DNA of 64,000 nucleotides from Azolla caroliniana (lineage: Eukaryota; Plantae; Polypodiophyta): the NCBI GenBank assembly GCA_043228905.1, contig JBHGNT010000008.1:13888001-13952000 (forward strand). The letters run 5' to 3'. Within the stretch, counting starts at the first letter, position 1. Each line of letters opens with the position of its first letter. Positions 8,314-57,096 of the stretch are shown one piece after another. The position numbers were made by a program, and so were the translations under genes. The notes under the pieces were generated by a model, which saw only the letters and a list, made by a program, of their open reading frames with translations, was not told where the DNA came from and made no database searches.

Positions 8314-8506
8314 TGTCATGATAACACTCACATCATGCATCGAAACGATCATGACACTCATATCATGACTCGAAAGGATTTGAACCCACGACCTTGTTGT
8401 ACACATGTCAAATCCTTAACCATTGTATTAGTATTCTTATATCTATAGTTTTTAGAATATGACATAGTAATTCTCTTTCAATAATCTCTCTATCTCTCTC
8501 TTGACA
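8314..8506 (+). repeat. Chromovirus 5' LTR, internally deleted (lacks the TCTAGA array and TATA)
   Basis: First ~150 bp match 21381-21530, then jumps to a CT-rich end ...TTGACA. Confidence 0.75.
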
Positions 8507-15909: not shown

Positions 15910-15927
15910 TTCACGTCGGGTTCACCA
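15910..15927 (-). promoter_or_regulatory. Primer binding site complementary to tRNA-Trp
   Basis: Minus TGGTGAACCCGACGTGAA, 4 nt from the 5' LTR; matches the recalled 3' end of plant cytosolic tRNA-Trp (UUCACGUCGGGUUCACCA). Confidence 0.85.
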
Positions 15928-17755
15928 CTTGTGTCGTGCCTTTTGGCGTCGGATCGTTGCATGAGTCGGGTGGGAACCATCGGGGTTTTGGACTAGGAGG
16001 AGGAAGAATTTGAGGCTAATCTAGTTATGATTAGATTACAAGAAAGAGATATAGAAACTTGTGAATCCCACAAGTATAGATTATTAGATTTATTACTATT
16101 TAGAATCCTAATTACAATTTATCATAGATTGGAAGCGAGAGATTATATAAAACTTCGTGAATCCCACGATTATATTTTATTAATTGGTGTTTTAGGAAAT
16201 ATATCTAATTTCCAAAAATTTCACCCCCCTATTACATTGTGCTCCCCATCCTTATATAACAATGAGAGAGTCTTGGCAATCCATGCTTTTTCTAAAGTCA
16301 TATATTTTTTATCGACTATTATGTTCATGCACACCATATGTGCATGTGTAGCTTTTTCTTTTACCATGTGTTTTCTTCTAACTAAAGTTTATCCTAGTGT
16401 ACACTTACCTTTCTATGTGGGACGTCTATTTTTTTAACACTAATAATATGTTAGTGTAATGGTAAAGCTTCACATTATGTACATGGAGGTACAAGGTTCA
16501 AATCTTCCCTATGCATGTAAGAATATTTTTTTTCTATTTACAAATTTGTCTCTTCATCCGGTGAGAGACTCCCATCGGCCTTCTTTATCCGGCTCTTGCT
16601 GATTCTGCTTGATCCGATTCTTACCGGGTCCTCCTTCATTCGGTTTTCACCGGTTCTCCTTACCATGTCCTCCTTACCGGTTCCTCCTTGCCATCCCATC
16701 CGGAGGAACCAAAAATGTAATTTTCACGTAGTGTGCGAATTACACTAGGACAACGTGAGCGCCGAAAAAGCTCAACAATATGAAGACTTATCATAGCAGG
16801 TTCATCAACTTGATGCGACTATATTGTCATTACGAGAGCAAGCGTCAGGGGCTTAGAACTTCACTAGAGAGCCAAAGATCAGCCTCCCCGCCAAGTTTGA
16901 TGGTACGAGGTCTTTATTTCGAAGCTTTTTGAATCAAGTTCGTCTGGTTATTCAGCTACATCCCAATCGGTATCCAACTGATGTTGCTCGTGTGGGATTA
17001 GTGGGAACTTTGATATGCAGTATAACGTTAGCATGGTTCGCACCACTTCTCGAGAAGAAATCACCATTGCTGGAGGATTTTGAGGCATTTGTTAAAGAGT
17101 TTCAAGCTAGTTTCGGAGACACCGACATCACTAGGACAACGATAAACAAGATTCGAAGGCTCCGACAAGGAGATCGTCCTGCGTCAGCTTACGTAACCGA
17201 TTTCTGTCTCTTGGCATGTAATATCCCTTGGGATGAGGCAGCCTTAATGTATCAATTCCTTCAAGGTTTGTGAAATGATGTCAAAGATCTTCTTCTTACT
17301 TTCTCTAAAGATCTGAAGTCGCTTATAGAAGCCATTAGTCGAGCCGTGTGATGTGATAATCGCCTATTTGAGCAATGTTCTGAGCGCCAACAAATGTTAC
17401 ACCGTCAACCTGAGCAGACTTACGCTTTCGTGGTTGCAATGCCTCCACAAGTTTCTAGACCCATTACAAGGGATGACCCAACTCCGATGGAAATAGAGTC
17501 AACACAACGTCGTGGGCCATTATCAGATGCTGTGAAGCAACGGCGTCAAGCGCATCGCCTCTGCCTATATTGTGGCAGTCCAAGACATATAGATGTAAAT
17601 TGTCCACATAAACTTAGGCATCAAGTATACCAAGTAAGTGCCCATGAAAACCCTACATCGAGTTCTATTGTTACTTCTAATAACATAAGTAAGCCTCATA
17701 GTCCATGCCATGAGAATAGATTCAATGTCTTGAGTCAATTAGAGGATGTGTTAAA

Positions 17756-20700: not shown

Positions 20701-21388
20701 CCCATTTTTCGCAAATACGGGCTGTCATCCTCGGTGGATGATGAATGCACATCCAGACGTTCCTACCAACCCTGCTGCTGAGGATCGTCTTAGTCGCCTC
20801 CAAGAAATTCACGCTACCATTCTCCACAATTTGCATGATGCTCAAGTTACACACAAGAGGCTTGCCAATCGTCATCGTCTAGACTCCTCAAAAAAGTTCC
20901 GCGTTGGGGATCGTGTATGGCTTCTCCAACACAACCTCAAGACCACTCGACCTTGCAGTAAATTGGATTACCAACGTTTTGGCCCTTACATGATCATTGG
21001 TAAGATAAGTGATGTTGCATTTCGTCTTGACCTCCCTCCGCACATGCATCTTCACCCGGTGTTTCATGTATACCTTTTGGAACCTTATACTACAAGTTCA
21101 ATTTTGGGCCGTCTTACGACACCCCCCACCACCTATCGAGTTCTTGGATGGCCCGAATTTGAAGTTGTTTCCGTTCTCGATTCTAAAATCGTGCACAACA
21201 AGGTGTATTACTTAGTCGATTGGCTAGGCTATACCCCCAATGATCGAACTTGGGAACCTGCTGCAAATCTTTCCAATGTTGCGAAACTCGTCACAGCATT
21301 TCATCGCCAATATCCTTGTAAACCAGGTCCTAATACAAACCCTACGACCCGTGACACATGTCGTCGAAGAAGGGGGATAGTGTCATGA
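17756..21388 (+). pseudogene. Chromovirus pol (PR-RT-RH-INT-chromodomain)
   Basis: ALLDSGA (PR); [21 protein letters not shown] and FTKLDL (RT); 500-aa ORF 19886-21388 with HHCC, DDE core, GPY and chromodomain EFEVVSVLD...YLVDWLGY...TWEP. Confidence 0.93.
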
Positions 21389-22306
21389 TAACACTCACAT
21401 CATGCATCGAAAGGATCATGACACTCTCACATTATGACTCGAAAGGACCCACGACCTTGTTGTACACATGTCAAATCCTTAACCATTGTATTAGTATTCT
21501 TATCTATATAATTTTTAGAATATGACATCTAATATCATAGGAATATTCTATATTGCTCTACATTCTAGAATGGCCTAGAATATTCTAGAGTGTTTTGGAA
21601 CCTTCTAGAATACTCTAGAGATCTTCTAGATTACTCTACATTCTAGGATAACCTAGAATATTCTAGAGTGTTTTGGAACCTTCTAGAATACTCTAGAGAT
21701 ATTCTAGATTACTCTTCATTCTAGGATAACCTAGAATATTCTAGAGTGTTCTCTATTACTTATAAATAGGGATCTACAACTCATCCCAAACCTAAATTTG
21801 TTCAACTGGAACCTTCTAGAATACTCTAGAGATCTTCTAGATTACTCTACATTCTAGGATAACCTAGAATATTCTAGAGTGTTCTCTATTACTTATAAAT
21901 AGGGATCTACAACTCATCCCAAACCTAAATTTGTTCAACGCTCTAGAGCGTTGAACAAATTTAGGTTTGGGATGAGTTGTAGATCCCTATTTATAAGTAA
22001 TAGAGAACACTCTAGAATATTCTAGGTTATCCTAGAATGTAGAGTAATCTAGAATATCTCTAGAGTATTCTAGAAGGTTCTAGTGGTATAGAACACTCTA
22101 GAATATTCTACGTCATTCTAGAATGTAGAGTAATATAGAATATTGTGATATTAGATGTCATATTCTAAAAAGTATACATATAAGAATATTAATACAACGG
22201 TTAAGGATTTGACATCTGTATAACAAGGTCGTGGGTTCAAATCCTTTCGAGTCATAATGTGAGTGTCATGATCCTTTCAATGCATGATGTGAGTGTTATC
22301 ATGACA
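21381..22306. repeat. Palindromic 3' LTR (U3 plus inverted U3) with TCTAGA-rich tandem units
   Basis: Symmetry centre GCTCT|AGAGC at 21944/21945; inner arms 21809-22080 nearly perfect; outer arms roughly 90% identical by eye; direct duplication of 21677-21806 at 21810-21939. Confidence 0.92.
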
Positions 22307-33556: not shown

Positions 33557-33884
33557 TGTTGAGCGGCAAGCTCAACCGGAGCCGGATCGGCTGAATAAGC
33601 CGGAGCCGGTAAGTGAGACGGATCGAGCGAAACGGATCGGTATTATGGTGAGCAACCGAACTGGCAAGCAGTGGAGGCCGGGTGCAATCCGTAACCGGAA
33701 GTCCAATCGGAAGCCTAGCATAGGATAGACTACTAGGTAGCTATAGTCTCGTAGTAAGTGTCAGATGCTCGTGTGAGCATTGAAGTACATGGTACTTCTA
33801 TCAGTCCCAAGAGGACTTGGATAAATAGTGCTACTTAGCACTGTGTGTGTACAGAGTTTTGATATAATTTTGAAATCGTGTTCT

Positions 33885-33934
<50 letters not shown>

Positions 33935-36326
33935 GTTCTCTGTTTTACGCTTCCGCAAACACTTACGTTCACATGGTATCAGAGCGTGAGGGTTGAGAAC
34001 CTCTGCTGCAGACATTTACTCTTGAGAAGAAAACCCTAACAGGTCGAAAACAGACACAGTAGAAGACATGGATAGAGGCATGGCTACGTCGCTCCCGGTG
34101 GAGAAGCTCGACAGGAGCAACTACGCATCCTGGTCTTACAAGATGCACCAGTACCTGCTTGGACACGGGTACTGGAGTTATGTCGAAGGAGCGAATGATG
34201 CGGCGCCCGACTCGGCACACAAGGACTTCCCGGTATGGGAACAGGTGGCAAGCAGGGTGATGTACTGCTTCATGTCCAGTGTCGGCGATCAGCTGCTCAG
34301 CCACATCCGTGACACCAAGACACCGAAGGATGCTTGGGGGAACCTGAAAAAGGTTTTCGCCGCAAGCACCACTACCCGGAAGCTGCAACTCAGACAGGAG
34401 TTGAGCAATGTTCGACAGAAGAACATGTCCGTGGCAAACTACACGGGCCGGATAAAGGAAATCTGCGACTCGCTCGCCTCTATCAATGTTACCGTAGAGG
34501 AAGACGAGATGGTGCAGGTATGTCTCGGAGGCCTGGCGTCCAAGTTCGGAGCGTTCCGGACTGCGCTGTGTACAAGGGAGAATACCCCCTCATTCTTCGA
34601 CTTACAGTCGATGCTCCTTGTAGAGGAGAACCACGCCGGTGCATCTACCAGTGCATCCCCGGACAGCCCAATGTTGTACACGGGGACGGATCGGCTCCGT
34701 GGGCGTGGTGGAAGAGGTGGGTCGGCACGCAATGGAGGCGGCCGGCAAGAGCAGGAACGAAGGCACTATGAGTGTGCCGACAGCAGTTCCAGGACTTCCA
34801 CAAGCAGGGGGAGTCAAGGCGGTGCCGGAGGCCAACAAGACAAATCCGCTACGGAATGCTGGTACTGTGGGAAAAAAGGCCACAGGGAAAGCGAGTGCTA
34901 GAGAAAGCGTGCCGATTCGGACAAATCCGGATCCAGCAAGACCGGTAAGGGTGGCTGGCAAAACTCGCACTACGCAAACGGATCAGGAGGATCCGGAACC
35001 GGAAAGGCTGGTAAGGGACCAGCCTTGGTGATGAATCACAAGGCAAACTCAATGAAGAAGACCACTTCCAAAACGGAGGAAGTGTGGTATGTTGATTCCG
35101 GCGCGTCGAACCACATGACGAGCCACAAAGAGTGGTTCTCCTTTCTGGAGAAACCAGATCAACTAGGAGTAGTCGAAACCGGAGACGACACTCCTCAGCC
35201 AATCGTGCACATCGGAGAAGTCCCTCTACGCCACGTTGGACAGAAAGGGAAGCTGATGAACGTATTACACGTTCCGACAATCACGAAGAACCTGGTGTCC
35301 GTCGGTCAGATTGTCGACCAGGGGATGCAGGTGCGGTTTACGGGAATCGGAGAGGAAGATGGTGGAACGGGAATCGGAGAGGAAGATCAAATACCTTCGG
35401 TCGGACGGCGGAAAGGAATATTTTTCCGGCCAATTCACTAGTTATCTGCAGCAGAAGGGAATTAGACGAGAGTTCAGCTGTAGATACACACCAGAGCAAA
35501 ACGGTGTGGCCGAAAGGAAGAATCGGACACTCGTCGAAGCGGCAAGGGCAATGCTGGAGGAGAGGAGCATGCCCCAGTTCTACTGGGCGGAGGTGGTCCG
35601 GACGGCCGTCTACATACAAAACCACATTGGTGACAAGGTGTCAGCTCATGAGCTCTATTTCGGGTGCAAGCCAAACTTAAGACACCTTCGGATATTCGGC
35701 AGCATAGCGTATGTGCATGTGCCGGATCAGAAGCGGAGAAAGCTGGATGCAAAATCGGAAAAATGCATCCTAGTCGGCTATGCTCAAGAGCAAAAGGGGT
35801 ATAAGTGCTATAACCCCCAGACGAAGGAAGTCCAAGTTAGTCGGGATGTCGAGTTCGATGAATCGGCATCCTGGTACTCCGTACCGACTCCGACTTCCGA
35901 TCCCGACCCAATGCCGAAAGATCAGGCCAGTGAGCCTGAATCAGCCCTGGCAGAGGATGATGAAGCCGGGACTCAAGATGAGAGTCCGGAATCGTTACGA
36001 TTGAGCGGCAAGCTCAACCGGAGCCGGATCGGCTAAATAAGCCAGAGCCGGTAAGCGAGACGGATCGGGCGAAACGGATCGGTATTACGGTGAGCAACCG
36101 AACCGGCAAGCAGTGGAGGCCGAGTGCAATCCGTAACCGGAAGTCCAATCGGAAGCCTAGCATAGGATAGACTACTAGGTAGCTATAGTCTCGTAGTAAG
36201 TGTCAGATGCTCGTGTGAGCATTGAAGTACATGGTACTTCTATCAGTCCCAAGAGGACTTGGATAAATAGTGCTACTTAGCACTGTGTGTGTACAGAGTT
36301 TTGATATAATTTTGAAATCGTGTTCT

Positions 36327-36377
<51 letters not shown>

Positions 36378-36417
36378 TGTTCTATGTTTTATGCTTCCGC
36401 AAACACTTACGTTCACA
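33557..36417 (+). mobile_element. Young, internally deleted copia E; LTRs 33557-33973 and 36001-36417
   Basis: GTTCG TSD; near-identical LTRs; PBS TGGTATCAGAGC 33974-33985; gag 34068-34901 (CWYCGKKGHRESEC), PR and integrase core present; RT, RH and PPT absent. Confidence 0.93.
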
Positions 36418-37087
36418 GTTCGGGACTCCGATTACGACTCCTTTCTATTGCATGTTTTGGAGCTTTTGGAGATTGATGTGGCCAATTCTCTTGTGCCACA
36501 GTTGTTGTCTGCCTGGCCGGACTAGCCTCAACACAGGTGTCTATCCGACACTTCTCGAAAGGGGTGGTAAGGATTGGATGCTAGGTTACACGCGTAAGAT
36601 TATTACAATTAAGCACAGACAGTAAAACAATACAGAGATACAGATAAACACGCAATAATTTTATTTGTATTACTTCCGTCCAACCCTTTACAAATCATCG
36701 GATCCTTTTATAGGCATCCGGCAAGGTTACAATCGGTGTGCTTAGGCAACCGACATCCGAATCGGTCCGGATCCGGATCGGTACAACTGTACCGGATCCG
36801 TCCCTCCGAATAATAATTCTACTATCATTTACTTCCTATTATCCGATCCGACTCCGCCTTCCCACTTGTCCTTGCTCTTCTGACCGGCCAACACATGGCA
36901 CGCCCGTGGGAAAGTGCCTTGCACTTCGAATCCACTCCCGGCCTCATTCTTCCTCCAAAATATCGAGCACACTCTGCTCGATGGTGTCAAGTGGTGCTTC
37001 TTCCTCCTATTCCTTGCCTGCCTGGTCTCCGACCTCCGGTTGGGTTGGCTGCTCCGTAAAAATTTGCTGCTCCGGCTCTGCTTGATT

Positions 37088-39853
37088 CTATGGTGTCGGT
37101 GCTTCCTCACCGCTTCGTCCGGGTTCTTCCTGTTCTCCCTCTGTTCCAGGCTCTGTTCTGTTACCAGTGTCGCTTTCTCCGGTCTCGACTGGTCGGCTCA
37201 GTACGCCTTCTTCCTCTGCTCTGGTGTCTTCCGGTCTCAGCTCTTCTTCTTCTCCGGCATCGGTCTGCTCCTGCTCTTCTTGATTTCCTTCGAACGGAAG
37301 TTCTTCTTCGGGTATTCCTTGTCGGGGTTGTTCGGTGTCGGTTGGTTCAACTTCAGCCGGTCGCTCTCCCTCACTTATAGTGATTGGCGTCGTTCTTCCC
37401 TTGGCTTCCTGTCGTAACCGGTCCTGCTCGTATTTCTCCAACTCCAACTGAGTTGCGAGCTGCCCGTCATCCAACCTCTCTACCAACGCTCGGATTTCTT
37501 TGAGATGTTCTTCCGCTAAAGCGTAGAAATCCTCCGACAATTCTTCCTGAATGGAGACGATACTTTCTTCATCCATCTTGTAGAACTTGTCACCGGTCTT
37601 CCTCCGATTCTCGGCATCCGCTCGGAGTGTCTGCAACTCGGCTGCCTGTTGTGACCACTCCTTCCATAGCTTTTTCGTACTTTCGTTGATGCTTGCCTGA
37701 GCTCGGGTACTCCAACCTGACATGATGAGCTTGATCCGGTCAACCCCCGCCTTAGCATGCGTATAAGCTTCTTGCTTTTCCTTCCTTGCTCGTTTTATAA
37801 TGTCGGCCATTATCTGGGCCTGGGCCTCGTAATCCGCTTTCTGCTTTTCATAGGTACTTTGCAGTTTGCTGATCGTGAAGGTCGATCTTTCCTTTTCTTC
37901 ATTCCTGATCTTAGTCAGATCCAGCTTTTCCTGCCTTAGCGCCTCTAATTCCTTCCTTCTCTCCGTCGCTTGGGCTATTTCCGCCGACAATGCTTCCTTT
38001 TTGGCACTGACCTCATCCATTGCCTTAGCCAATCGGGTTTCTTTGAGCTGTTCTTTCAGCTTCTCTATTTGCCGGTCGTAGTTTGCTGTCCGTTTCTTGT
38101 TGTCCGACTCAACCTGCTTGTGATCTCGGTAGAGACGGTCGAAGTCCTCCGTCTTTTGCTTCAGGCGTCAGTTTGCCTGAGCTCTTAACCGGTCGTCCCG
38201 GTCCTTCTGTTGTCGGAGTTCTTCCTGCAGTCGTTCTATCTCCTGCTCGGCATGTCGACGCAGTCGGTCCTTCTCCTTTTGCAGCTTCTCTTTTTCTTCT
38301 TGCAGTCGGTCATTAGTGGCTCAGCCTTTCCGGAGGCCTTCTTCCATTTTTCGTTTGTCGTCCTCCACCGCTTTCCGCTGCTCCCTTTCTCTTTCCCTTA
38401 ATGCCTCCTGAGCTTTTAACTCCTCTCGTAAGGTTTCTATTATTTTTTCGGTCTCAGGGCCGGTTTGCAAGGCTACCGATTCCGGTTCCGGTTCTGGTTG
38501 CTTCCTTGTTGTCCCGAACGGCTCGGTGACAACTTGTGCTTGTTGAATTCCTTCCCTTGCCTGCAATAGCTCCCCTTGCATTTCCTCGATCTGTGTTCGG
38601 AGCGCGACCAACTCCTGAGTTGTTGTATGCGTCAGCTATTGCCTACACGTTTCTTCTTCCTCTAACTGGTCTGCTACTCCCGATAACTGCTCTGAAAGCC
38701 ATCTCAGCCATTGTGGCTTTGTGCTTCCTGTGTCGGGGTGGCCTTGCTCACTTCTACTCCTTAATTCAGGCTGTTTTTCCGGCCTTTTCTCTGGCTCCGG
38801 TGCTTGTTCATTCTTCTTCTCTGGGATGACCGGTTCTCTGAAGTCCGGCACAACCGGTGTCGGTGCTGCTTCCCTCGGTACGGGTTCCGGTACTGCTTCC
38901 GCCTCGGCTCCTAGAGGTGGTCCTTGCGCCCTCTGCTGAGTTTTGTCAACTGGTGGAGCCGGTCCTTTCGCCCGTCTCTCCCGACCTTGTCTTGCTGGGA
39001 GTCTTACCAGTGGTTCGGATGAGTCTTCTGTTTCAGCTTCCTCCTCCGGTGCGGCTACCAGACGGACCTTTTGTATAAAGACCTCTGGTTCCGGTTCCGG
39101 CCGTCGCAGCTTTATATTGATTGGTTTGAGCGCTACCGGTTCCTCCTCGGCTGATTTCCCTTTGCCTTTTTCTGCCGGTTTTGCCTTTGTTGCCGGTTCC
39201 TGTTGCTGTCGGGATGGCCCTTCCCCCCGCTGTTCTGCTTCTTGCTGGGTCCATCCGGGGGTGTGTTTCTCCAGGATCTGTCGGCGCTTTGTGACCTTTT
39301 TCGGCGTCGTCTCCTACCGACCTCTTTTCTTTTGTGTGATGGGGAGCACCGGTGGGACTAACACCGTTAGCCATTGTGCTATCCCGGCCCATGGCTTTTT
39401 TCCTTCCACAAGATTCTTGATGGCCTCCTTCAATCCTTCAGTTATGAAATGGAGCCAGTCCACTTGTAATCCTTCGTACGCTGCAATTAAGAACGATGCC
39501 CGGTACCTGGCTATGGCCGGGGGACGAGGATTCACGAATCCGTATTCCATCATGGCGCGGGCCACTTCTCCGAACAGCAGGTTCTCTCCGCCCTGTGTTC
39601 GGTACGCCTTGCTGCTGATAGAATACTCACCGAAATATTCGAACAGGATTTCACTTGAAGGGTTTTCGATTGTTTGAAGCCCTCCTGCTTTTATCCCTGT
39701 GAGCGCCTGCACCGCTCCTTCCGTGATTTCTGATAAATCAATCGATGTTGCCGCCTGCTCTGGTTCTGCGTGTGGTGGAGCGTCGGCGATCCGCAGCAAT
39801 CCTTTTAACCCGTTCTCCCTCATCCATTGGCGTGCCTCCTCCGACAGTACCAT
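37088..39853 (-). pseudogene. Extra ORF (~920 codons): globular N-terminus, low-complexity linker, long coiled coil, acidic tail
   Basis: ORF pieces 39314-40117, 38636-38851, 38321-38611 and 37088-38032 share one frame and are separated by stops; likely start is ATG 39853 (MVLSEEAR). Confidence 0.75.
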
Positions 39854-40275
39854 TGTTTCGAATTCTTCTTCTGTTGTCTGTTGTTCGGGATCGGGCTGTG
39901 TGTGCGTTGTGCGTCGGATTGCTCTTCTGTGCTTCTGCGCCTGTGTGTAGGAAAATTCGTAAAAAGTAAGTCCTTCGCAGGCCTGTGTCTTATATAGTGG
40001 CTTTTGCCTCGAGCCGCCCTCTTTCGTTTCCCGCGCATGTTCATCTCCCGCCATAATTAGTATGTCCTTTCTTGCTTGCCGCATGTGAGTGCCCACGTTC
40101 CCTGTTTTAAATAGCAAGTACGCGCACGTCCTTCTTTACTGCATGGCGCCTCTTCATTGCATGGTGGCGCTCCCACCTCTTGTGATCTCCCCATCACTAC
40201 TATGATTCGCGTCGATTTTGCCCACGTCATTTTTTTTTTTTTTTTTTTTTTTTTTCTTTCTTTCTTTGGACCACG

Positions 40276-43200
40276 TCATTTTCTGGTCCCCCCTGATTTG
40301 TTCGGGTCGGTTCGCGTTGATACCGGATCCTTCTGTCGGTTTTCCGGGATGGTCTTTGTAAGTATCGGTGTCAGTTCTTCCTCGGTCCGAATATCTTCAG
40401 CAGCGTCTGTCGGTGTCGGTTCCTCATCTTGCCGGATTTCCGGGTTTTGCTTGAACGGGTTGGCTGGCATATTTCCCTTATACGGCTTTAGCCGAAACCC
40501 ATTTGCCCACTTACCGATGACATCTCCAGACAACGTGCCGAGCTGATACGACCCATTGTACTCCTTGGTGATCCAGAACGGTCCGGTCCACCGAAACCGC
40601 AACTTTCCCGGCATGTTCCCCATCCGTGTCTGGAATAGTAGCACCGGTTTCCCGACTTCGAACTCCTTTTCGTTGCCACGCCGGTGTCGGTCCACGAAAG
40701 CTTTTCTCCTCCTTTGCTCCAGTTCGAGTTGTAGTAAGCTGGCTATTCGGTTTTCTTCTAATTCCAACAACGTCGCCAGCCGGATTCATTCGGACTCCTT
40801 CTCACTTAAGCGCTCCTTTACCTGGATCCGTAAGCTGGGGATCTGGAACTCTACCGGCATGACCGCTTCTAAACCGAATGCTAGTCGAAACGGGGTTGTC
40901 CGGATGCTGGTTTTGTACGTTGTTCGGTACGCCCATAGCGCGCTTTGCAATTTCGTATCCCAGTCGGTCCGGTTCTCGTTGACGATTTTTCGTAAGATGT
41001 TCTGCAGAGTTTTATTCGTTGATTCCGCTAGTCCATTGGCTTGAGGGTAGTAGGGAGTACTCCTTTTATGTACCACCGCGTAAAATGACGTCAGGCTTTC
41101 TACTACCTGCCCGAGAAAATGTCCTCCTTGGTCACTTATAAGCTCGATCGAGCATCCATACCGGCACCATATGCACTCGTACAGGAACTTTGCCGTGGAC
41201 ACGGCCGTGTTGTCCCGTAAGGCCTTTGCTTCTGCCCATTTGGTGCAATAGTCGGTCGACACTATGACATACCGATTTCCGGTTCGCATTGCCGGTGGCT
41301 TGAAGGGACCGACAAAGTCCAAACCCCACTTTTGAAACAGTTCCAATGGCAAGACCGGGTGGTGTGGCATCTGGGCCTGCTCCATGGGTTGGCCCAGTCG
41401 TTGACACAAATCGCATTCTCTGCTATACTTCACGGCATCTTTTAGGGTGGTGGGCCACCACATTCCGCTCTGCCATATTTTCCGAGCGGTTGCGTCGCCG
41501 GCATAATGCCCGCCGGCAATTCCACAGTGGGCTTCCCTGAGGATTAAATCCTTCTCATCGCTCCGCACTACTCGTCTCCAGATGCCATCTGCCCCCTTGT
41601 GATAGAGGGTGTCTCCAACCAAGCAGAAATGTCTGCTTCTTACTGCTACCCTTTTCCTTTCATCGCGATCCATGTTCTCCGGGGGTACTCCGATGCTTAG
41701 GAACTGATGCATCTCAGTTAGCCACTTGTCTTCATCGGTTACCGTTGCATCCGTTGCCGGTTTCGTCGTGATCTAGAACAACTCGGCGTCGGGGAACTCA
41801 TCCTGGACGCCGTCCCCTGCTTCTCCGGATTCGAGTCTGCTTAGGTAGTCCACTACCGCATGCTGCGCCCCAGGTCGGTGGAAAATGTCGAATTCAAATT
41901 CCTGTAACAGCAATGTCCATCGTGCAATTTTTCCCGTCAGGGATGCCTTCGAGACCAGGTAGAGTAGTGCCGAATGGTCGACATGGAAGGAAAACTTCCT
42001 TCCGAGCAGATAGTGCCTATACTTTGTGACACTATACACCATTCCCAATGCCTCGCGTTCCATCGTAGAGTAATTCCGTTCGGCTTTTGAGAGTTTCTGG
42101 CTTGCGTAGTACACCGGTCGGTACCATTTCGGCTCCGTGAGTTGCATCAGAACGCTGCCGATTGCTACGTCCGACGCGTCGACGAAGACGTGAAAGCTTT
42201 TACTCCAATCCGGCGGTTGTACCACCGGAGCTTGCGACAGCATAACCTTCAACGCTTGGTAGGCTTCCTCCTCCGTCACCGCCCATAGGAAGGGTACCCT
42301 GTGTACGGCGGTATGTAATGGTGTAGCGAAGTCTGCGAGGTGCCGTATCATCCGGCTATGCCACCTTATTTGGCCCAGGAACCGGCTTAAAGCCTTTGCA
42401 TTATTTGGTGCTGGTGCCTCGAGAATCGCCTTGACTTTATCCGGATCTACTGCAATTCCTTCCTTACTCACCACGTGCCCTAGTAAATTGCCGCTTGCCA
42501 CTCCAAAGACGCACTTGGCCGGGTTCAGACTCAACCGGTACTCGCGGCACTTCTCCAAGCACAGCTGGAGGTGATCGAGATGCTCTCCGTGCCGGCTGTA
42601 GACCGCGAAATCGTCAAGGAAGACCTGCATAAAACCGGGGATATATTCTCCGAAAATTTCCATTATTATCCTTTGAAAGATCGCTGGAGCCGTCTTTAGT
42701 CCGAACATCATCACGACCGCGACGAACACTCCCCATTCCGTAACGAACGTTGTCTTCTCCTGGTCGGCCGGGTTCATTCGTATTTGGTTGTAGCCGCTAA
42801 ATCCATCCAGGAAGCTGTAAACTTCGTGGCCGGCTACCGCATCTAACACCCCGTCCGTAAATGGTAGTGGAAATGCATCGGTCACTGTTGCGGCATTTAG
42901 TTTTCGGTAGTCCACGCATACCCGGATTTTGCCGTTCTTTTTCGGGACCACCACTATCGGACTCAGCCAGGTTGCCTGCTTGACCGGTCGGATAAATCCG
43001 ACCCGGAGGAGCTTATCAATCTCCTCCTTCACCTTCGCCGCATAATTCGGATTCATCCGGTACCTACGTTGAGCGATCGGTTTTGCGTCCGTACTTAGGT
43101 GAATTTGGTGCTGATAGAGCTGGGGGTCCAGCCCTCGCATGTCTTCGTACGACCACGCGAACACATCCTTGAAGTCTGTTAATAATGCTATCATTGCCTT

Positions 43201-46146
43201 CTTTTCTTCCTTCGGCAATTCCTTTGCGACATTTACCGGTCGGGGCTTGTCTGTTGTGCCGAGGTCCACCTCCTCTAGTTGGGATGCTTTTACCCTCTAG
43301 GATATCGTCATTTCCCTCTCTAGGGATTCCTGCGCTTGTCGTAGTTCCCGGATCGCCGCTTGGTCCGGTTCGTCCGGTGTCGTAATGTATGGTTCTACTG
43401 CCGCCGTGATATCCACCTCAAATAGTGGGACGATTTGTGGATGTTCCTCGAGGTACCGCTCGACTTCCTCGTCCGGTAATCCCTCCAACATGTTGATGCT
43501 TTCCGCATACAATGGAGTTGCTTCCTTACTGGCGATTACCCGTGGTTGCGTCGTTACTCGTACCTTTGCTTTCCCTCGCCAGAATGTGATCATGTTCTTT
43601 TGCTTGATATGCGCCGTCCGTAGCCATGGTCGTCCTAGCAGTAGGGGGTACGCACCTTGTACATTCAGCTGCAGCACCACGGCCGATATCCGGAATACGT
43701 GGCCTCCAATCGTTACTTCCAAATCCCGGATAAGTCCAATCGGTCAGACTGAGCTAGTATCCGCCATGCGTAACCAGAAGGGGCATGGTTCCCATTCCCG
43801 GATGCCCAGGTTATCGCATGTCTGTCGGCTGATGACATTTACCCCAGAGCCTCCGTCAATAATCGTTCCAGCAATTTCCTTTCCTTTCACGATTGCCGTG
43901 ATCGCCGGGCTACTTGTATCGACCACCGCTGGTCCTTCCTCCAGGTTGGAGAAGAATGCCGGTGCTGGCGTTGGCTTCGGTTTTCTTACGGATGCCTGTA
44001 AGTCTGCCGTAAACCGTGGCACCAACTGTAGTAACCGTGCTAACGGCAGCACGATTTGACAATCCTGTAGCGCTTGCCACGTCGGGTTTTCTCCTGGCTG
44101 TATGATTTCTTCGTCTTTTGGCATATTTTGGTCTCTGACTTCTGCCGCATTCTGTTCATTGGCCTCCTTGATCCATTGCGCCGCTTGTTTTCTGATTGCC
44201 TCCTGGGCTTCCCACTCGGCGGGCTTTCCCTTTGACCGGGTTGTGACCTGCTGTACTTCTATTATTTCGGCTGTAACCATGTTGACTGCCGGCTGCTTGT
44301 CATTGGTTTTGCTTGGGCATTGGTTACTATAATGGCCTTCCTTACGGCAGTAATAACAGTACACCTTGTGACTGTTGCTCGTTTCTCCTTTGTCCCCGGT
44401 TTGGAGGGTGGGTATGCTTCGGCGGTCGTCTTCGGTTTTTCGGTTATCCGGTACCGATACCGGGTTGTCATTCCTCGCTGCCTCCCGACGTTCCTCTCTT
44501 CGGAAAAATCCACGTTTCTGATTCCGTCGGAAATTTCGGTTCCCTTGTCGCCTCTCTTCTCTGCGTCGTTCGTATTCCGGGGATTCGTCTCGGTCGTACC
44601 GGTCCCGGGGGTAGCTATCTCTGCGTTTCTCCTCTCGGTCATAGTTATCGCGTCTTCTATCAGCGTATCTGTTACCGCGTTCGCGTTGGTAGCGGTCGTC
44701 TCTCCGGAATCGATCCTCATCCGGGTTCTGATTGCGCGGTTCTATGTGTCGAACCGGTGCTGCCTGTCGATTTAATAGGTTATATTCGCATCAGTCCGTT
44801 GTATGGGCTCAAGAGTTGCAGATCATACATTGTGTCCGCAGGGTGCAGTCTACTGTTGAGTGGCCCGAATTTAGGCATGTTGTGCATTGTAAGGCCTGTC
44901 GGAACCTCAGGTCTTCCTCCTTTGGGAGTGCCCGGTGTAACATCCCCATCGACAAGAAGGAACTAGTCTTGTCCATTTCTAAGACCCGATCAATAACTTG
45001 GTCCATTGTGCTGGTGTGGAAATCAAGGACTCCGCACATTGTTCGAAGTGGCTCTTTCAGCGCGGCCAAAAAGACTGCTTTGGCTTCGTCTTCGGGTGGT
45101 GCTCTCGTCAGTTGGCTATGCAGGGTCTGAAACCGAATGATGAATTGTGGCACATTCTCGTTCTCTTCCTGTCGGGTGGTGTAGAACTGCCCGACCAATT
45201 CCCTTTGCTCAACTTGTCTGTGAAAAAGCCTGAGGAATCTGGCCTTCAAGGCATCGAATGTGGCAAAGCTGCCCGGTAAGTGCTTTGCGTGCCATCGGGC
45301 CGCCGGTCCTTCTAAGGTCATGCCGAATTCGGCGACTTTGGATCGTTCGGCTTCGGGCTCCGTCAGTCTTTGGGAGACATGGTTGGCTTCCCATGTTTGG
45401 AGGAATGCGTACACGTGTGCCTCCGCGTCGGGCTCATCCCGGTACTTTGGGTATAGGTACGGCATCGTGTCGTCCAACTGACTCTCCTGCCTTCTCCGCT
45501 CTCTGTCCGCTGTTGGCGTCGGTGTGAGAACCTTTGGTTCCTCCGCGGTTGGTGCCGGTATCCGCTCCTTCAGTTCCTCCGCGGGTGTTGCCGGTGTCCG
45601 GTCCTTTGGTTCCTCCGCGGGTGTTGTCGGTATCCGCTCCTTCGGTTCCTTCGCGGGTGTTGTTGGTATCCGCTCCTTCGGTTCCTTCGCGGGTGTTGTC
45701 GGTATCCGGTCAACCTCCCTCGGCAATTGCCGGTCACCGAATTCCAAGGTTATTTCTTCCTCTGGCTCCGGTGTTACTGAGTCTTCCGACCCCTCTTCCC
45801 CCGGGTCGTTTGGTGTGTCGTGGCTGCTTTTATACCGGGACGCAACGCTTCCGTCGCTTTCCGACTCCGCCTCAAGTGTTGTGAATGCTTCCGAGTCCCC
45901 GTCGCCCCCGGCGAGCGTCTGTAGTATCGTTTCCGCCTCTTTCAGGCTTGTTATGCTACTGCCTTCGTCGGGGATTTGCAGAACCCGGAACTGCAGTGCT
46001 TCTTCTGCGACTCTCCGAAGAGTTTTGGAGAATGACCGATCCCGCCGGATCTCGTCGACGGCTTGCTACAGGGCTTCCCGTCGTTGCTCGCGTTCGGTGT
46101 ATCGTCTCCCTCGTTCGGTGATGTGGTCGTCGTTTGGTCTAGACAT
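40276..46146 (-). pseudogene. Single-frame gag-pol with several premature stops
   Basis: ORFs ending at 45747, 44364, 43722, 43269, 41712 and 40770 share one frame; retrotransposon gag, three CCHC-type knuckles, IIDGGSGVN (PR), FLDDF (RT), FVDAS (RH), HHCC plus DDE (INT), WTGPF; no chromodomain. Confidence 0.93.
45525..45710 (-). repeat. 36-bp tandem repeat (x5) in gag encoding RIPTTPAxEPKE
   Basis: Visible in both the DNA and ORF 44809-45747. Confidence 0.9.
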
Positions 46147-48108
46147 CCATCCCCCGGTTGTCCTCTGCACTTTGCAGGAATCGTGGTCGCCAAAATAGTG
46201 TTGTCTGCTTGGCCGGACTAGCCTCAACACAGGTGTCTATCCGACACTTCTCCAAAGGGGTGGTAAGGATTGGATGCTAGGTTACACGCGTAAGATTATT
46301 ACAATTAAGAACAGACGGTAAAACAATACAGAGATACAGATAAACACGCAATAATTCTATTTGTATTACTTCCGTCCAACCCTTTACAAATCATCGGATC
46401 CTTTTATAGGCATCCGGCAAGGTTACAATCGGTGCGCTTAGGCAACCGACATCCGAATCGGTCCGGATCCGGATCGGTACAACTGTACCGGATCCGTCCC
46501 TCCGAATAATAATTCTACTATCATTTACTTCCTATTATCCGATCCGACTCCACCTTCCCACTTGTCCTTGCTCTTCTGACCGGCCAACAACAGTTTCAAG
46601 TTGGTTTCGACTTTAAGACCTTTTGCATACATTGCCGACTTTACCTTGTTTGATTCGAGAATATACATTTTTCCTTCTCAGCGACCGAGAGCGATGAGGC
46701 GACCATCTTTTTCGATGAAGCACCCTTCATCATTGAACCTCACTTACATCCCTTGTTCGACAATCTGGCCTACCGAGACTAGGTTTTTTAGTGATGGTTG
46801 GGACATGCAAGACATTTTTGAGGTAGGTTTGTTTGTCTTCGTTCCCGAATGGGACGTTTCCAATGTGTCGTATTGAATGAATTGTCTCATCACCTATTTT
46901 GACATAACCGGGCCGATCGGGCTTTCATAATTCTCGGAACCAATCTTCATGAGACGTCATATGATTGGACACTCCCAAGTCAACAAACCACACATTATCC
47001 AAGGTTGAGGTACTTGTCTCACCTTGTGTCGACATCGAATGTGCTTTGGGCCTCATCATAAACATTCTGCCACGGTCATCATAGTCGAAATTTGAGGTGT
47101 AATTTGTAAGTTGTCGGTTGGTCGACACCAACTCTCGCTTCTTCTTTCAGCACTCCTCTTTGTAGTGGCCGAGTTTTCCACAGTACCCGCATTTGATCGA
47201 GTTGTTGTGATGGCTCAGTCTGGCAGGATGGCTCCCCCTTCTGCCGAACTCCCTGGAATTGTTCCTATCGTCTTGCCATTGGTGGGAGCTGTGTTCTCAG
47301 GTCGACTGACCTTGTCGCCCTCGGCCGAATCGACCTCTATTTCCTCGTTCGAATCCTCTTCTATCATCCGATTGTGAGTAAAGCATCTGACGATCCGGTG
47401 CATTGCTCCTTTGTCAGGCATGGTTTTCTTCCACCAATAATATGGATTGAAGGTCGAAAAAGGAAGGTGGGTTCTCCCTTGCAAGAATGGCCTACCTGAT
47501 TGCGCCAAAGCGTAGTGCTAAGATGTCGAGGCATATTTGCACCATTTCATCATCGTCAATGGTGACATTGATCAATCCGAGGGCATCACACAGCTACTTG
47601 ATTTTCAAGGTATAGTTGGTGATCGACATATCCCTCTTTTGCATGTTGTTTGGCTCCTGTCGAAGTTGGAGCTTTCGTGCAGCCGTATTGGCCGAAAAAA
47701 TCTTCTTTAGATTTCCCCAAGCTTCTTTCGGTGTTTTCGAATCTCGAATATAGCCAAGCATGTGGTCATGAACGCATGATGCAAGGCAGTATAACACATG
47801 GCTCACGGCCTGCTCCCATGTTGGGTAGTCGGCATGTGTCGGGATGGGTTGCGTTTCGTGAGCTCCATCGATGTAGCTCTGGTAACCTTGTCCGACAAGG
47901 TACTGATGCATCTTGTACTCCCAAGATGCGAAGTTTGTCCTGTCGAGCTTCTCCATAGGAAGAGCGCTTCCCATTTGAGTATTCATGATGATTTCTTCTC
48001 TATTTTAGAACCGGTTTTGTTGTTCGTCGGTGTGTAGCACAACACAGTCGATTAAGCTTGATCAAATAACCACACGTTGTGATACCATGTAAAGAATGAG
48101 AGGCATAG

Positions 48109-51100
48109 TGTTACCCCGTACAAGATGTACGGAGAGTCAGTGTGATGAGCGAGGGTCGAATGTTATCATGATGTTGTTGTGTATGTGTAGGGGACATAAA
48201 TGTAATTGTGAGTCTATACGTATGTGAACACATGCACACGTGTGTGCATGCGGATAGATACATAGGGGTGTAAGCCCCCTCGAGCATTCATACTGGACAC
48301 TCACTCACACCCTCAAGTTTTTTAAATCTCACAAATGCCCCTCTCTTCTCTTTTTTCCTCTCTCTTGTTTTTCGATTTCATCTATAATTTCACTTTTACT
48401 TTTAGGTCATTTTTTCCATTTTTCTGTTTGTCTTCTTCTCATTTTCTTACATTTTTTTTTTTCCCCCCTTACATTTTGCGTCTTCTCTAGTCTTCTACTC
48501 TTGCGTGCTTCCTTCTTCTTGGTGTTAACTGTTGCATCTTCTGTTCTTCTTGTCTTTCATTTCCTTTTCTCTGTTCTTCCACTGCTAATGGTGCTTCTCT
48601 TTCCTCTTTGTTTCATCGTTTCTCTTCTTTCTTTCTTTGCGAGTTCTTCTTGTTTGATGTCTTCTGCAAATCTTCTCTCTTTCTTCCTTTGTTTCTTCCA
48701 CTTCTTCCTGTTCTATTTTGGTGTTTCAGGGTAGGGAGGAAACATGACCGTCACTCTCCCTTTGCTTGCACGTCATCTCCTTCTTTGTGTTGCCGCCGTC
48801 ATTTCCGTTGCCCAACCGTGGTTGTCCGTCTCTTTCCGGTCCTTACACCTGCTACCGCATCATCCTGCCGCCTCCAATCGTTGATGTTCGGCCCGTCCGT
48901 TCTCGGCTGTTTGTCTGTGTCTCCAACTCCGTCTGGTCAGTCAGTCAGATTCAGCCGTTATTGTCTGTCCGGCCCGTCGTTTCAACGTCATCGTCGTTCT
49001 AGCTGTCGGTTCTCCGGCCATTCTTGTCGCTTTTCGGCGGTGTCGCTGTTCTGGTTGTTGTCCAGTCGCTTCTCGGGCCGCTCCGATTGCTCATGTCCGG
49101 TCACTCTCCGGCCTATCCGACCGCTCGAATTGTTGTTCGTCGTTGTCATCGTCTCCTTCGCTTTTCGGCGGCTCTGTCCTCATCGACGGCACCGTCGCTT
49201 TTCGGTGTCCATGTCCCATCATTTGGTTGTTGCCATTGTCGTGGCTGTGCATTTCGGATATCGTCTCTGTCGCTCTTCGGCTCTATCCGGCCGTCATCCC
49301 ACTGTCTTCCAATCGTGTGTCTGGTCTGTCCGTCTGTGTGGTCGCTTATTCGGCCCATTTGACCCATCCTACTGTGTCTTGTGTCTTTTTGGTCGCCTTT
49401 GTCTAGTGCATCTGTCCGTATCTTTCGAGCGCTATTGGTTGATGTCTGGTTTGCATCTGCATCCCCTCCGTCTTCTTCGGCCCTTCGGTGTTAACCGGCT
49501 CCGGTTCTGGTTCCGATTCCGGTTCCGACTCTCTCTGTGTTGCTACTTTTAGAACCACCTCTCGTGCATTCTCAGCACATCCTGCCGGTCTCCGCTCCAC
49601 ACACTACGACTTTCTTTGCAGTCTCCTGGTGGGCTTCTCTTTCCGGTCGTGCTGGCACCGGTTCCCACTGCATCGCAGTTTGTACAGCCGTGCATCTTGC
49701 ACCACGCTTTCAAAAACACGCACATTGTCGCTAACCGCATCGGAAACCCGCACATTGACACTAATCTCAACCTCGCACAACCATTGTTGCCATTCATGCA
49801 TTCCTCCATCGCATCATCATTTCTTGCACTCGTACACAAATGTCATCGTTTCCATTTCTTCGCTTGCGCATACATTGAACATCGTCGTCGTCATTTGCAT
49901 GTTTCTGTCATTTCTCGCACATCATGCTGCCACGTTCTCTTCTTGGACTTCTTCATCAAAGGGGGTCCGCCGTTGTGGTCGCCAAAAGGTGTTGTAGGTT
50001 TTAGGGTTAGGGTTAAGGACGATGATGATGATGAATGATAACTATGATGATTGGTAATGAAGATAGACATGGTGATGGAGAGTATGATGGTGAGAGAGAT
50101 CATATAGAGAAGCATTGCGGGGTGGGGGGTGGTGCCTAGAATGGCCCCACCCCCCTCCCAAGGGGGTTCAACATGAGAGAGGGAGAGAGAAGAGAAAAGG
50201 TGTCAAAGAGAGAGAGATTAGAGAGAAAATGTTCATTCATATTTCATTCATTCCCCATAAGGGGTTAAATAGTACAAGAGGGGGTAGATACATAGGGGTG
50301 TAAGCCCCCTCGAGCATTCATACTGGACACTCACTCACACCTCCTTGTATCCATCCGCATGCACACACGTGTGCATGTGTTCACATACGTATAGACTCAC
50401 AATTACATTTATGTCCCCTACACGTACACAACAACATCATGATAACATTCGACCCTCGCTCATCACACTGACTCTCCGTACATCTCGTACGGGGTAACAC
50501 AATATGGCACGCCCGTGGGAGAGTGCCTTGCACGTCGATCCCACATGCCTTGATGATGATATTTCTTCGACCGGAACTTCCATCGGTCCTTTCAACGATC
50601 AACTCCCTCGATCGGAGTGCTTGACTCGAACATCTTTGTCGGTCAGCAAATCTTTCCGCGACACAACATTCTCGTTCTGTCGGCTTACGAACTTCGTCAT
50701 GGGTCTAAAATAACATTGTGTGTATGTGTGTTCTTCTTTCTATTTTGTGAGTTATCGTGATAGGGAGGAAACACGACCGTCACTCTCCCTTTGCTTGCAC
50801 GTCATCTCCTTCTTTGTGCTGCCGCCGTCATTTCCGTTGCCCAACCGTGGTTGTCCGTCTCTTTCCGGTCCTTACACCTGCTACCTCATCATCCTGCCGC
50901 TCCAATCGTTGATGTTCGGCCCGTCCGTTCTCGGCTGTTTGTCTGTGTCTCCAACTCCGTCCAGTCAGTCAGTCAGATTCGGCCGTTATTGTCTGTCCGG
51001 CCCGTCGTTTCAACGTCATCGTCGTTCTGGCCATCGGTTCTCCGGCCATTCTTGTCGCTTTTCGGCGGTGTCGCTGTTCTGGTTGTTGTCCAGTCGCTTC

Positions 51101-51917
51101 TCGGGCCACTCCGATTGCTCATGTCCGGTCACTAGATGGAGCAGCAGTCGTACAGTGGCAGCCGCCGGATAGGGGCTGGATCAATTTTCGGAATGTGCAA
51201 AGACACATAACGGTCAGAGTGGCTGAACGGTGAGAAACCGGAGGCGGACGAACCGGATGGGCTAGACAAACGAACGGAGGACCGGAAAGATAGGGTCGAA
51301 CATGAGCAATCGGAGAGTGACCGGACATGAGCAATCGGAGGCCTTCGACCGGAACAGGAAGTTCCGGTCGAAGAAATATCATCATCAAGGCATGTGGGAT
51401 CGACGTGCAAGGCACTCTCCCACGGGCGTGCCATATTGTGTTACCCCGTACAAGATGTACGGAGAGTCAGTGTGATGAGCGAGGGTCGAATGTTATCATG
51501 ATGTTGTTGTGTATGTGTAGGGGACATAAATGTAATTGTGAGTCTATACGTATGTGAACACATGCACACGTGTGTGCATGCGGATGGATACAAGGAGGTG
51601 TGAGTGAGTGTCCAGTATGAATGTTCGAGGGGGCTTACACCCCTATGTATCTACCCCCTCTTGTACTATTTAACCCCTTATGGGGAATGAATGAAATATG
51701 AATGAACATATTCTCTCTAATCTCTCTCTCTTTGACACCTTTTCTCTTCTCTCTCCCTCTCTCACGTTGAACCCCCACCCCCCACCCCGCAATGCTTCTC
51801 TATATGATCTCTCTCACCATCATACTCTCCATCACCATGTCTATCTTCATTACCAATCATCATAGTTATCATTCATCATCATCATCGTCCTTAACCCTAA
51901 CCCTAAAACCTACAACA
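48109..51917 (+). mobile_element. Non-coding LTR element with internal inversion and duplication; LTR copies 48109-48261 (partial, +), 49990-50499 (-), 51439-51917 (+)
   Basis: CATAG TSD (48104-48108, 51918-51922); TGTTA...CAACA LTR; PBS and 3' motif shared with the 36.5-46.6 kb gypsy; no retroelement protein motifs. Confidence 0.88.
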
Positions 51918-52799
51918 CATAGATGGTGCTATGCAACGGCCGTGAGCTTTGTGTGTGATTGTGTGTGAACGTGATGCAAGAGAGAGAGAGGGAGGGAGGG
52001 AGGGAGGGAGGGAGAGTTCTAAACAAGAAAATTGTATATTACCGCCAATAGTTACTCAGATACAAAAGGTTGGTTTAAATACCAACTAGTCTAGGCAAAT
52101 GCCCTTTCTATTAATTATAGAAAGGTCCTAGTAAGTTGTCCATTGCCTAGTGTGAACACTATTCCTATGAGAAGTTGAGTTCGATTCTCAATATGAATCT
52201 TGTTAGAGGTGATAAAGGGATAAAGATGAACAGAGAATGTAAATCTGTCAACAATGAAGCGAATAGATATGCAAATATGTTAACCAACATTTTGCTACCA
52301 TTACCCACCCATTCAAGGATAATATGAAGTACACTTGAAAAGAGGAAGAGAAGGAGAAGAAGCAGTCCATTACCTAATCCAATAATCATGGATCAATTGT
52401 CGTCATTGCCCCTGGCTATCGGCGTCGGACCTAGAGGTTCGTGTTGTTGACACCAAGCACCACATTTCGAGGTTCTACACATACACATGAATGTCCCAGA
52501 CATCATATTTACTAATGTTGTTTTTATTTAACACCAAAATCAAGTGATTCCAAATTGCATCATTACTTTCAAGTTGGTCTTGGTCAAGATCATCTATAAC
52601 TTGAAATCACAACCCTTGTTGAAATCCTTATAATACCACTTTTTTAGATCTGATTTTAAGTTCGCTAGTTATAGTTGTAATAGATAGCATTCAACATTTG
52701 AACATAGTAACACTACCATCTACATAAAACTGAGAAGAGAATGATACATGTGAAATATGTAACAAACTTGGTATTAGCATGGTCTATTGTATGCTCTAA

Positions 52800-56789: not shown

Positions 56790-57090
56790 TCTTTTCTTCT
56801 TTCTTCTTTCTTCTTCTTCTTCTTCTTCTTCATCATCATTCCCCCCCTCCCCCCTCCCCCTCCTTCTTGAATAGCTGTTACATGGCTTTTACTTAGAAGA
56901 AACCAACCCCTTTAAACAGAAACAGAGAGAGAAAGAGAGATTAGGTCATGTTTATCTCATTAGCAGCACTAGTAGCATCAGAAGAGGAAGCAGAAGCAGA
57001 AACAGAAACAGAAACAGAAACAGAAGAAGAAGAAGAAGAAGAAGAAGAAGAAGAAGAAGAAGAAGAAGAAGAAGAAGCAGAAGAAGAAGA
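56790..57090 (+). repeat. (TTC)n, (CAGAAA)n and (GAA)n microsatellites in the probable 5' UTR
   Basis: Direct reading: TTC run ~56793-56831, GAA run ~57023-57089. Confidence 0.9.
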
Positions 57091-57096
57091 GGTATT

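Follow-up and report, generated by a model that had tools for sequence, protein, structure and literature searches.

The polypurine tract (PPT) has been described as universal in retroviruses (PMC12789967). It is the plus-strand primer of Ty3, and in both Ty1 and Ty3 the primer binding site (PBS) is bipartite, with the acceptor stem and the T-arm of the primer tRNA pairing with separate segments (PMC5371799). Here we describe two long terminal repeat (LTR) elements, elements 1 and 2, from a 64,000-nucleotide (nt) stretch of the Azolla caroliniana genome (assembly GCA_043228905.1, contig JBHGNT010000008.1, positions 13,888,001 to 13,952,000 of the forward strand), termed the window, whose own numbering is used throughout. 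Both elements carry a 40-nt motif (the 40-mer) ending in CCA at the position of the PPT. Judged by the sequences compared, a tRNA-Arg(UCU) 3′-end copy has genuinely taken the place of the PPT, and it is conserved and structurally constrained in several families of one host group.

Element 1 is a 10.1-kb Ty3/gypsy element without a chromodomain match, located on the minus strand with LTRs at 46589-46199 and 36893-36503 and a target site duplication (TSD) of ACTGT. Its two LTRs, each of 391 bp, differ from one another at 7 positions. An initial annotation had placed gag-pol on the minus strand, a PBS after the 5′ LTR and a CCA hairpin at the PPT position, and the coordinates agreed with this layout, as follows.

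46199 to 46589, minus strand: 5′ LTR of element 1, 391 bp, TGTTG...CAACA, with the TSD ACTGT ahead of it
46181 to 46192, minus strand: PBS1 of element 1, TGGCGACCACGA, separated from the 5′ LTR by a 6-nt spacer
40276 to 46065, minus strand: gag, zinc knuckle, protease, reverse transcriptase (RT), RNase H and integrase, from Pfam matches except for the protease, with in-frame stops breaking the frames
36945 to 40135, minus strand: extra forward open reading frame (ORF) 3′ of pol, in pieces, with no Pfam family
36896 to 36935, minus strand: 40-mer of element 1, GTGGATTCGAAGTGCAAGGCACTTTCCCACGGGCGTGCCA, followed by TG and then by the 3′ LTR at 36893
36503 to 36893, minus strand: 3′ LTR of element 1, starting TGTTGG 2 nt past the CCA of the 40-mer, with the TSD ACTGT after it

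The order gag, protease, RT, RNase H, integrase between direct LTRs with a TSD is that of a Ty3/gypsy element; the protease was called from the sequence by eye, without a Pfam match. The PBS1 decamer TGGCGACCAC begins at 46192, 6 nt past the end of the 5′ LTR. The end of RNase H is separated from the integrase HHCC motif by 108 amino acids, and no match to an aRH or chromodomain was detected with Pfam in eight ORF segments outside the stretch 43297-43743.

Read on the element 1 strand into the 3′ LTR, the motif is GTGGATTCGA-AGTGCAAGGCACTT-TCCCAC-GGGCGTG-CCA-TG-LTR and consists of the 5′ half of a T-arm (36935-36926), a 14-nt hairpin insert (36925-36912) and the segment TCCCAC-GGGCGTG-CCA (36911-36896). 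The CCA lies 2 to 5 nt short of the 3′ LTR in both elements. With tRNA numbering assigned by hand, the 40-mer runs through nt 49 to 58 of tRNA-Arg(UCU), the insert directly after A58, and then nt 59/60 to 76 including the CCA; it thus equals nt 49 to 76 except for the insert and the loss of one C. This identity, suggested in the initial annotation, was confirmed because 55 tRNA-Arg(UCU) copies at 50 loci of metagenome contigs have the matching 3′ end GTGGGTTCGA-G/A-TCCCAC-C/T-GGGCGTG (two of them read ATGGG at the start of the T-stem or are the captured copy described below). ARAGORN called 58 Arg-tct genes in the retrieved metagenome stretches. The CCA of the 40-mer consists of letters that plant tRNA genes do not encode, and A58 is the usual stop for RT on a tRNA. 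At the motif site itself no complete tRNA gene was found, with 0 genes from ARAGORN and no tRNA match from Rfam; a role as a Pol III promoter was rejected, there being no A box and an interrupted B box.

On minus-strand DNA, the complement of the motif is an 11-nt PBS-like site (PBS2). The unbroken tRNA match of the C66 form is 11 nt long and occurs within the window only at the three copies of the motif. The chance of finding such a 10-mer at most 9 positions from an LTR start was estimated as ∼4 × 10−6, or ∼2 × 10−4 if any of 50 tRNA ends is allowed. The GTGG..CCAC and GTGC..GCAC stems of the initial annotation do fold as described, but the 40-mers were no more stable than shuffled sequences (z scores of −0.75 and −1.25 for elements 1 and 2). 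By alignment with the tRNA, the outer GTGG/CCAC stem is the T-stem, and only the inner hairpin is new.

No PPT adjoins the 3′ LTR in either window element or in 34 related copies, which were selected by means of the motif, and the absence of a PPT stated in the initial annotation was supported. The last 15 nt ahead of the LTR contain 8 purines in elements 1 and 2 alike, and the longest purine run within 60 nt of the LTR is 7 in element 1 and 4 in element 2. The control, a gypsy-type element at 8713-16752 of the same window, has an ordinary PPT, GGAGGGGGCAAG, abutting its LTR. The purine-rich end of the 3′ ORF, 45 to 60 nt upstream, was rejected as a PPT, being too distant from the LTR and absent in a second family of elements (family B, see below). 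The control element lies on the minus strand and has a PBS, TGGTGAACCCGACGTGA, after a 4-nt spacer, with LTR-like copies at 12969 and 32356; we take this PBS to be of the Trp type and the element, hence, to be Phygy-like.

Element 2 provides a second instance of the motif within the window.

48109 to 51918, plus strand: element 2, a non-coding, internally inverted LTR element with the TSD CATAG
LTR parts of element 2: LTR at 51439-51918, inverted LTR at 50499-49989, partial LTR at 48109-48274
51394 to 51433, plus strand: 40-mer of element 2, 5 nt (TATTG) ahead of the 3′ LTR
50505 to 50544, minus strand: inverted copy of the 40-mer, ahead of the inverted LTR
49974 to 49984, minus strand: PBS1 of element 2, TGGCGACCACA, 5 nt past the inverted LTR, the same PBS as in element 1

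As had been noted for this element at 48.1 to 51.9 kb, its LTRs are dissimilar to those of element 1 (no blastn similarity; best E value, 0.95), while the PBS is shared and the 40-mer, with its inverted copy, is nearly identical. Element 2 codes for nothing resembling element 1 and, though non-coding, retains PBS1 as well as the 40-mer. It is a rearranged composite with an inversion breakpoint in an imperfect inverted repeat within the LTR (48252-48311). It also contains a duplicated internal segment of 397 bp, and the whole is nonetheless bounded by a single 5-bp TSD.

Metagenome contigs were scanned with a pattern designed for tRNA genes and element copies, which returned 121 stretches from 23 of the 64 parts of the collection. 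A regular expression applied to these stretches gave 127 matches, of which 71 had a 1-nt gap (mostly tRNA genes), 35 had a 14-nt gap and 21 were of other kinds. Three of the 14-nt-gap matches (L033, L078 and L095), with no CCA and no LTR, were excluded, as were 20 of the 21 others, L110 being retained. The outcome was 34 further element copies at 34 loci on public plant-derived contigs, in 4 to 5 LTR groups. The CCA was not required by the pattern and is intact in 30 of the 34 (TCA in two, CTA and CGA in one each). A TGT LTR start lies 2 to 8 nt past the motif in 33, the remaining copy being cut by a contig end. Nucleotide 66 was permitted by the pattern, yet is present in none of the 32 copies with a 14-nt insert that precede an LTR. 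When all 37 LTR starts from the related loci and the window were considered, the exact core was present in 33, which are the pattern-selected sites; two starts outside this selection (L049 and L075) bear the motif with one or two changes, and the other two are the 5′ insertion junctions of the window.

Grouping by blastn placed the LTR starts of 29 sites in 5 groups (one a singleton) and the upstream regions of 36 sites in 4 groups, with some LTR groups being linked by their upstream regions. Contig depth peaked at 36901-36911 in all 4 of the public runs compared, which span three organism codes and 3 studies. It was 1.5- to 3.3-fold that at the LTR start and 7- to 15-fold that at a position 40 nt upstream, values that represent depth over the motif and not copy number, and loose contig ends flanked the peak on either side. 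On the basis of this peak with its loose ends and of the LTR and upstream groupings, the motif is read as common to more families than either flank. At 36931, a common variant that is nearly fixed in one run brings back the letter found in the tRNA.

The initial annotation had called for a check of conservation and covariation in the 40-mer. Conservation across families and covariation of the inner hairpin were both detected, but the outer stem exhibited no covariation. Over 25 of the 37 motif copies, pairing in the 4-bp inner hairpin was 97%, and three of the four pairs had undergone double-sided changes (11 cells). This level was reached in 0 of 500 shuffles, and controls in which the alignment was slid were 42 to 58% paired overall, versus 90%; the double-sided changes represent a few family-level events and are not independent. 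The outer stem, whose 3′ strand the search pattern dictates, is paired at 85%. These data bear on whether the motif could be a remnant without function, left by an old inverted duplication or tRNA capture and spread by recent amplification. All copies probably have a single origin and come from a single host group, and the upstream links between some LTR groups are in keeping with such a history. Retention of the 40-mer over 4 to 5 LTR groups without a blastn link, in coding and non-coding elements, is not, nor are the compensatory changes and the divergence of flanks on both sides of the 40-mer, and no replacement primer is present. As the covariation and the missing PPT would stay unexplained, we regard a neutral relic as very improbable.

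PBS1 had initially been assigned to the tRNA-Arg(UCG) type. The element 1 copy matches 12 nt, and the element 2 copy 10 nt, of human tRNA-Arg(UCG) as printed in bioRxiv 2021.02.06.430044, a comparison made with the human sequence only. No plant UCG tRNA-Arg was present among the retrieved tRNAs; the PBS1 decamer is labelled Arg or Trp in a paper on endogenous retroviruses (PMC4724089). In family A, which includes both window elements, PBS1 is complementary to the motif at TGG/CCA only. In family B (L005, L029 and L063), 11 nt of the motif are complementary to PBS1, and the end of the LTR is followed by CAATT and then by the complement of tRNA-Arg(UCU), junctions which show use of this tRNA as primer at an ordinary PBS. 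The captured complement extends for 11 nt in L029, 34 nt in L063 (200-232) and 76 nt in L005 (1190-1265), where the contig ends before the LTR and the 76-nt tRNA copy, with its CCA, is at the contig end. With 11, 34 and 76 nt of its complement present in these junctions, tRNA-Arg(UCU) is a usable primer in this lineage. The captures join three different points of the 3′ ORF and look like premature plus-strand jumps after primer copying. They sit in short derivatives in which the tRNA complement is joined to the last ∼0.5 kb of the element. In L005, the whole mature tRNA including the CCA was reverse transcribed, beyond the usual A58 stop. The captured copy carries A26/G44, in contrast to the G26/C44 of most retrieved genes.

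Complementarity between the motif and PBS1 in family B raises the alternative that the motif serves as a tRNA-like RNA signal for a different function, with the plus strand primed otherwise nearby. Such a signal could bind RT, a synthetase or the 5′ strand released from the primer tRNA, or it could circularise the RNA by pairing with PBS1. Both tRNA-like elements and tRNA bridging are known in HIV-1, and the bipartite PBS of Ty3 (PMC5371799) is a further precedent. In family A, however, there is no complementarity between PBS1 and the motif beyond TGG/CCA; no conserved purine tract was found upstream of the motif, family B being pyrimidine-rich there; and the CCA occupies the position required of a primer end. 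We consider this alternative improbable.

A proposal that we regard as somewhat probable is that the plus strand is started by host tRNA-Arg(UCU) annealed to minus-strand DNA, so that each strand has a tRNA primer. The minus strand would be primed at PBS1 by tRNA-Arg(UCG) in family A or tRNA-Arg(UCU) in family B. After the first jump, RT would copy U3, the spacer and the 40-mer, and RNase H would remove the RNA. On the exposed DNA, tRNA-Arg(UCU) could then form 10 to 11 bp at its CCA end, one bulged nucleotide and 5 to 6 bp of the T-stem and, with the DNA hairpin looped out, up to 10 further bp with tRNA nt 49 to 58. The tRNA 3′ OH would be extended across the 2- to 8-nt spacer into the LTR, followed by the usual second jump and by integrase trimming of the spacers at both ends. 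A possible role of the hairpin is to make RT pause or to assist in releasing the site. The position of the primer was assigned to the motif because a primer must end beside U3 and the tRNA end with its CCA is the sole conserved feature there. Co-folding predicted pairing of 26 (element 1) and 25 (element 2) of the last 28 nt of the tRNA with the minus strand, in a three-way junction with the hairpin looped out, and 24 to 27 of these 28 nt paired in all of 20 distinct variants; RNA energies served as a proxy for RNA:DNA, and the match is partly forced by the search pattern.

It is also possible, although we think it unlikely, that the element's own RNA copy of the tRNA end primes the plus strand. 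RNase H, whose usual cut on a tRNA primer is at the CCA, would cut past the CCA of the mimic, and the hairpin or the G-rich GGGCGUG would shield the upstream fragment, which would act as a degenerate PPT. The 97% pairing of the inner hairpin with its double-sided changes at 3 of 4 pairs, G-U wobbles on the RNA strand, the occurrence of stem-lengthening variants and an intact RNase H active site in element 1 (all four acidic residues, D373, E415, D440 and D483, are present) are in accord with this idea, and short PPTs containing pyrimidines exist, for example, in Ty1. By itself, however, it leaves the retained T-loop letters and the match out to nt 49 unexplained. The fold is no more stable than shuffles, the cis T-stem mimic was absent from the minimum free energy structure of the RNA in 7 of the 20 variants, and an RNA hairpin presumably cannot be folded and hybridised to DNA simultaneously. 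Both routes, by a second host tRNA or by an RNA mimic, had been suggested in the initial annotation; overall, the sequence evidence leans towards a host tRNA acting in trans.

Several observations weigh against priming by the host tRNA. An integrated left end with uninterrupted sense tRNA was not seen among the retrieved loci and the junction rows listed. Every non-Watson-Crick combination in the hairpin that still pairs is a G-U when read on the RNA strand (3 cells), with A-C in 0 of 17 insert variants, and variants GTGGGATTCGA and GTGGGATCGA extend the cis stem and weaken tRNA pairing; an RNA structure is favoured by these wobbles and stem-lengthening variants. The purine count alone is near that of the control (8 to 10 of 15 versus 11 of 15). 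Lastly, the 34 copies all come from one set of assemblies and one host group and were found via the motif pattern, a sampling that excludes motif-less families.

Reading the left end of element 2 backwards gives AACA-CAATA-TGGCACGCCCG, and the PBS1 junction of family B is AACA-CAATT-TGGCACGCCCG; these mirrored junctions suggest that the motif arose as an inverted PBS junction. The origin of the site was probably single, either as an inverted copy of an LTR-end/PBS junction or as an inverted read-through tRNA copy. Read-through tRNA at the PBS1 junction was not detected among the contig loose ends listed. The spacers between LTR and PBS (46193-46198, 49985-49988 and related loci) are 5 to 7 nt long and always start with C, and those ahead of the 3′ LTR are 2 to 8 nt long and always end in G; the terminal inverted repeat is, therefore, one base longer than TG...CA.

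Searches were also made outside plant-derived contigs. In viral contigs, an exact 16-mer gave four matches, none with a tRNA or a retrotransposon protein, and a single-protein query detected no RT relatives. An alignment query of the viral contigs detected 70 distant RT relatives (24 to 40% identity), and the eight of these inspected (L126 to L133) had no usable 3′ junction or motif. Seven pattern matches in prokaryote genomes, with no CCA, LTR start or protein match, were taken as chance.

Other features of the window were as follows. Element 1 is surrounded by copia-type sequence (46590 onward), indicating nested insertions. A copia-type element occupies 33559-36417; its PBS, at 33974, is of the tRNA-Met type, and each of its LTRs contains (CT)n microsatellites. 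A near-perfect palindrome of ∼900 bp (21381-22306; centre at 21944/21945) is made of 78- to 133-bp repeats, and its terminal segments recur at 8314-8465. A 600-amino-acid open frame at 56875-58677, with the motif CxxHP...GVCALCLRERL, is probably a host gene; we assume that it resembles plant OCTOPUS/DUF740-like proteins.

In accounts of LTR retroelement and retrovirus replication, priming from a PPT counts as an invariant step, and it shapes which features RNase H has to recognise. The existence of a natural, high-copy family lacking a PPT shows that the step is replaceable. Priming by a tRNA would, if true, be a third solution to second-strand priming beside the PPT and the hepadnavirus RNA oligomer, and an inverted PBS end suggests an evolutionary route for the primer switch. 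These elements offer a system for studying the use of tRNA by RT on a DNA template, integrase trimming of 2- to 8-nt spacers and the control of both strands by tRNA pools or tRNA fragments. Annotation filters that depend on a PPT may miss or misorient such elements.

The RT relatives of element 1 include proteins of Adiantum and Riccia (up to 56% identity) and of Pinus and Rosa (40 to 43%), with others at up to 88%. A midpoint-rooted tree of 86 of 121 sequences, with no classified references, placed element 1 with Adiantum and Riccia, apart from the Pinus and Rosa proteins. Phygy has a 4-bp NCGN TSD, a tRNA-Trp PBS and no extra ORF, and Selgy has a 4-bp TSD, a tRNA-Ala PBS, a length of ∼5 kb and no extra ORF (PMC6317226). 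Both share with element 1 the status of non-chromovirus gypsy elements of seed-free plants without aRH, but were rejected on these REXdb descriptions since element 1 has a 5-bp TSD, an Arg-type PBS and an extra ORF. Athila has a 5-bp TSD, no aRH, a 3′ extra ORF and a tRNA-Asp, -Asn or -Ala PBS (PMC6317226); the first three features fit element 1, but the PBS type differs, and the likeness of the ORF at 36945-40135 to Transposase_32/ATHILA ORF clusters (PF03078) is weak and at the feature level (0.87 to 0.88, below 0.9). This ORF has coiled-coil-like and acidic stretches and 38 homologues, all on short contigs. The tRNA-Arg PBS and 5-bp TSD are as in TatIII/Ogre/Retand (REXdb; PMC6317226), but the aRH of those Tat lineages (TatI to TatIII, Ogre and Retand) has no match in the ORF segments of element 1 that were scanned. 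Tat Z1 and Z2 are aRH-less Tat lineages of non-flowering land plants (PMC10508981). Like Athila, they share with element 1 the lack of aRH, and the host range of its relatives (fern, liverwort, conifer) fits; judged on these two features, Tat Z1/Z2 would be the likeliest home of element 1. Term searches of the available text found PBS, PPT, primer and tRNA absent from the main text of PMC10508981 and PBS, PPT and tRNA unmentioned in a 2026 Tat paper (PMC13468544). No description of a tRNA-primed plus strand or of this motif was found in the literature searched, from which subscription papers and Repbase reports were mostly absent. The chances seem to us evenly poised that the PPT was given up across a whole lineage of plant Ty3/gypsy elements, which may correspond to the aRH-less Tat Z clades found in ferns, liverworts and conifers, and that host arginine tRNAs prime both strands there, with a three-way-junction site on minus-strand DNA.

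Compared with canonical LTR elements and retroviruses such as Ty3 and HIV-1, the elements described here share the domain order, TG...CA LTRs, a 5-bp TSD, a tRNA PBS after the 5′ LTR and an intact RNase H but carry a copy of a tRNA 3′ end in place of the PPT. Helenus and Cassandra, which are terminal-repeat retrotransposons in miniature, also contain tRNA-derived sequence within an LTR retrotransposon (Kojima 2024, PMC10886601); their tRNA part lies inside the LTR and keeps its Pol III boxes, and the PBS and PPT are normal. In contrast to Helenus (TRIMp3), the motif here is outside the LTR, comprises only nt 49 to 76 with the CCA, has an interrupted B box and is accompanied by loss of the PPT. 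The bipartite PBS of Ty1 and Ty3 resembles the predicted minus-strand site in its two-segment tRNA pairing. The Ty1 and Ty3 sites belong to the RNA genome and serve minus-strand priming, whereas the site described here is tRNA-complementary on the opposite strand only and is located at the plus-strand origin.
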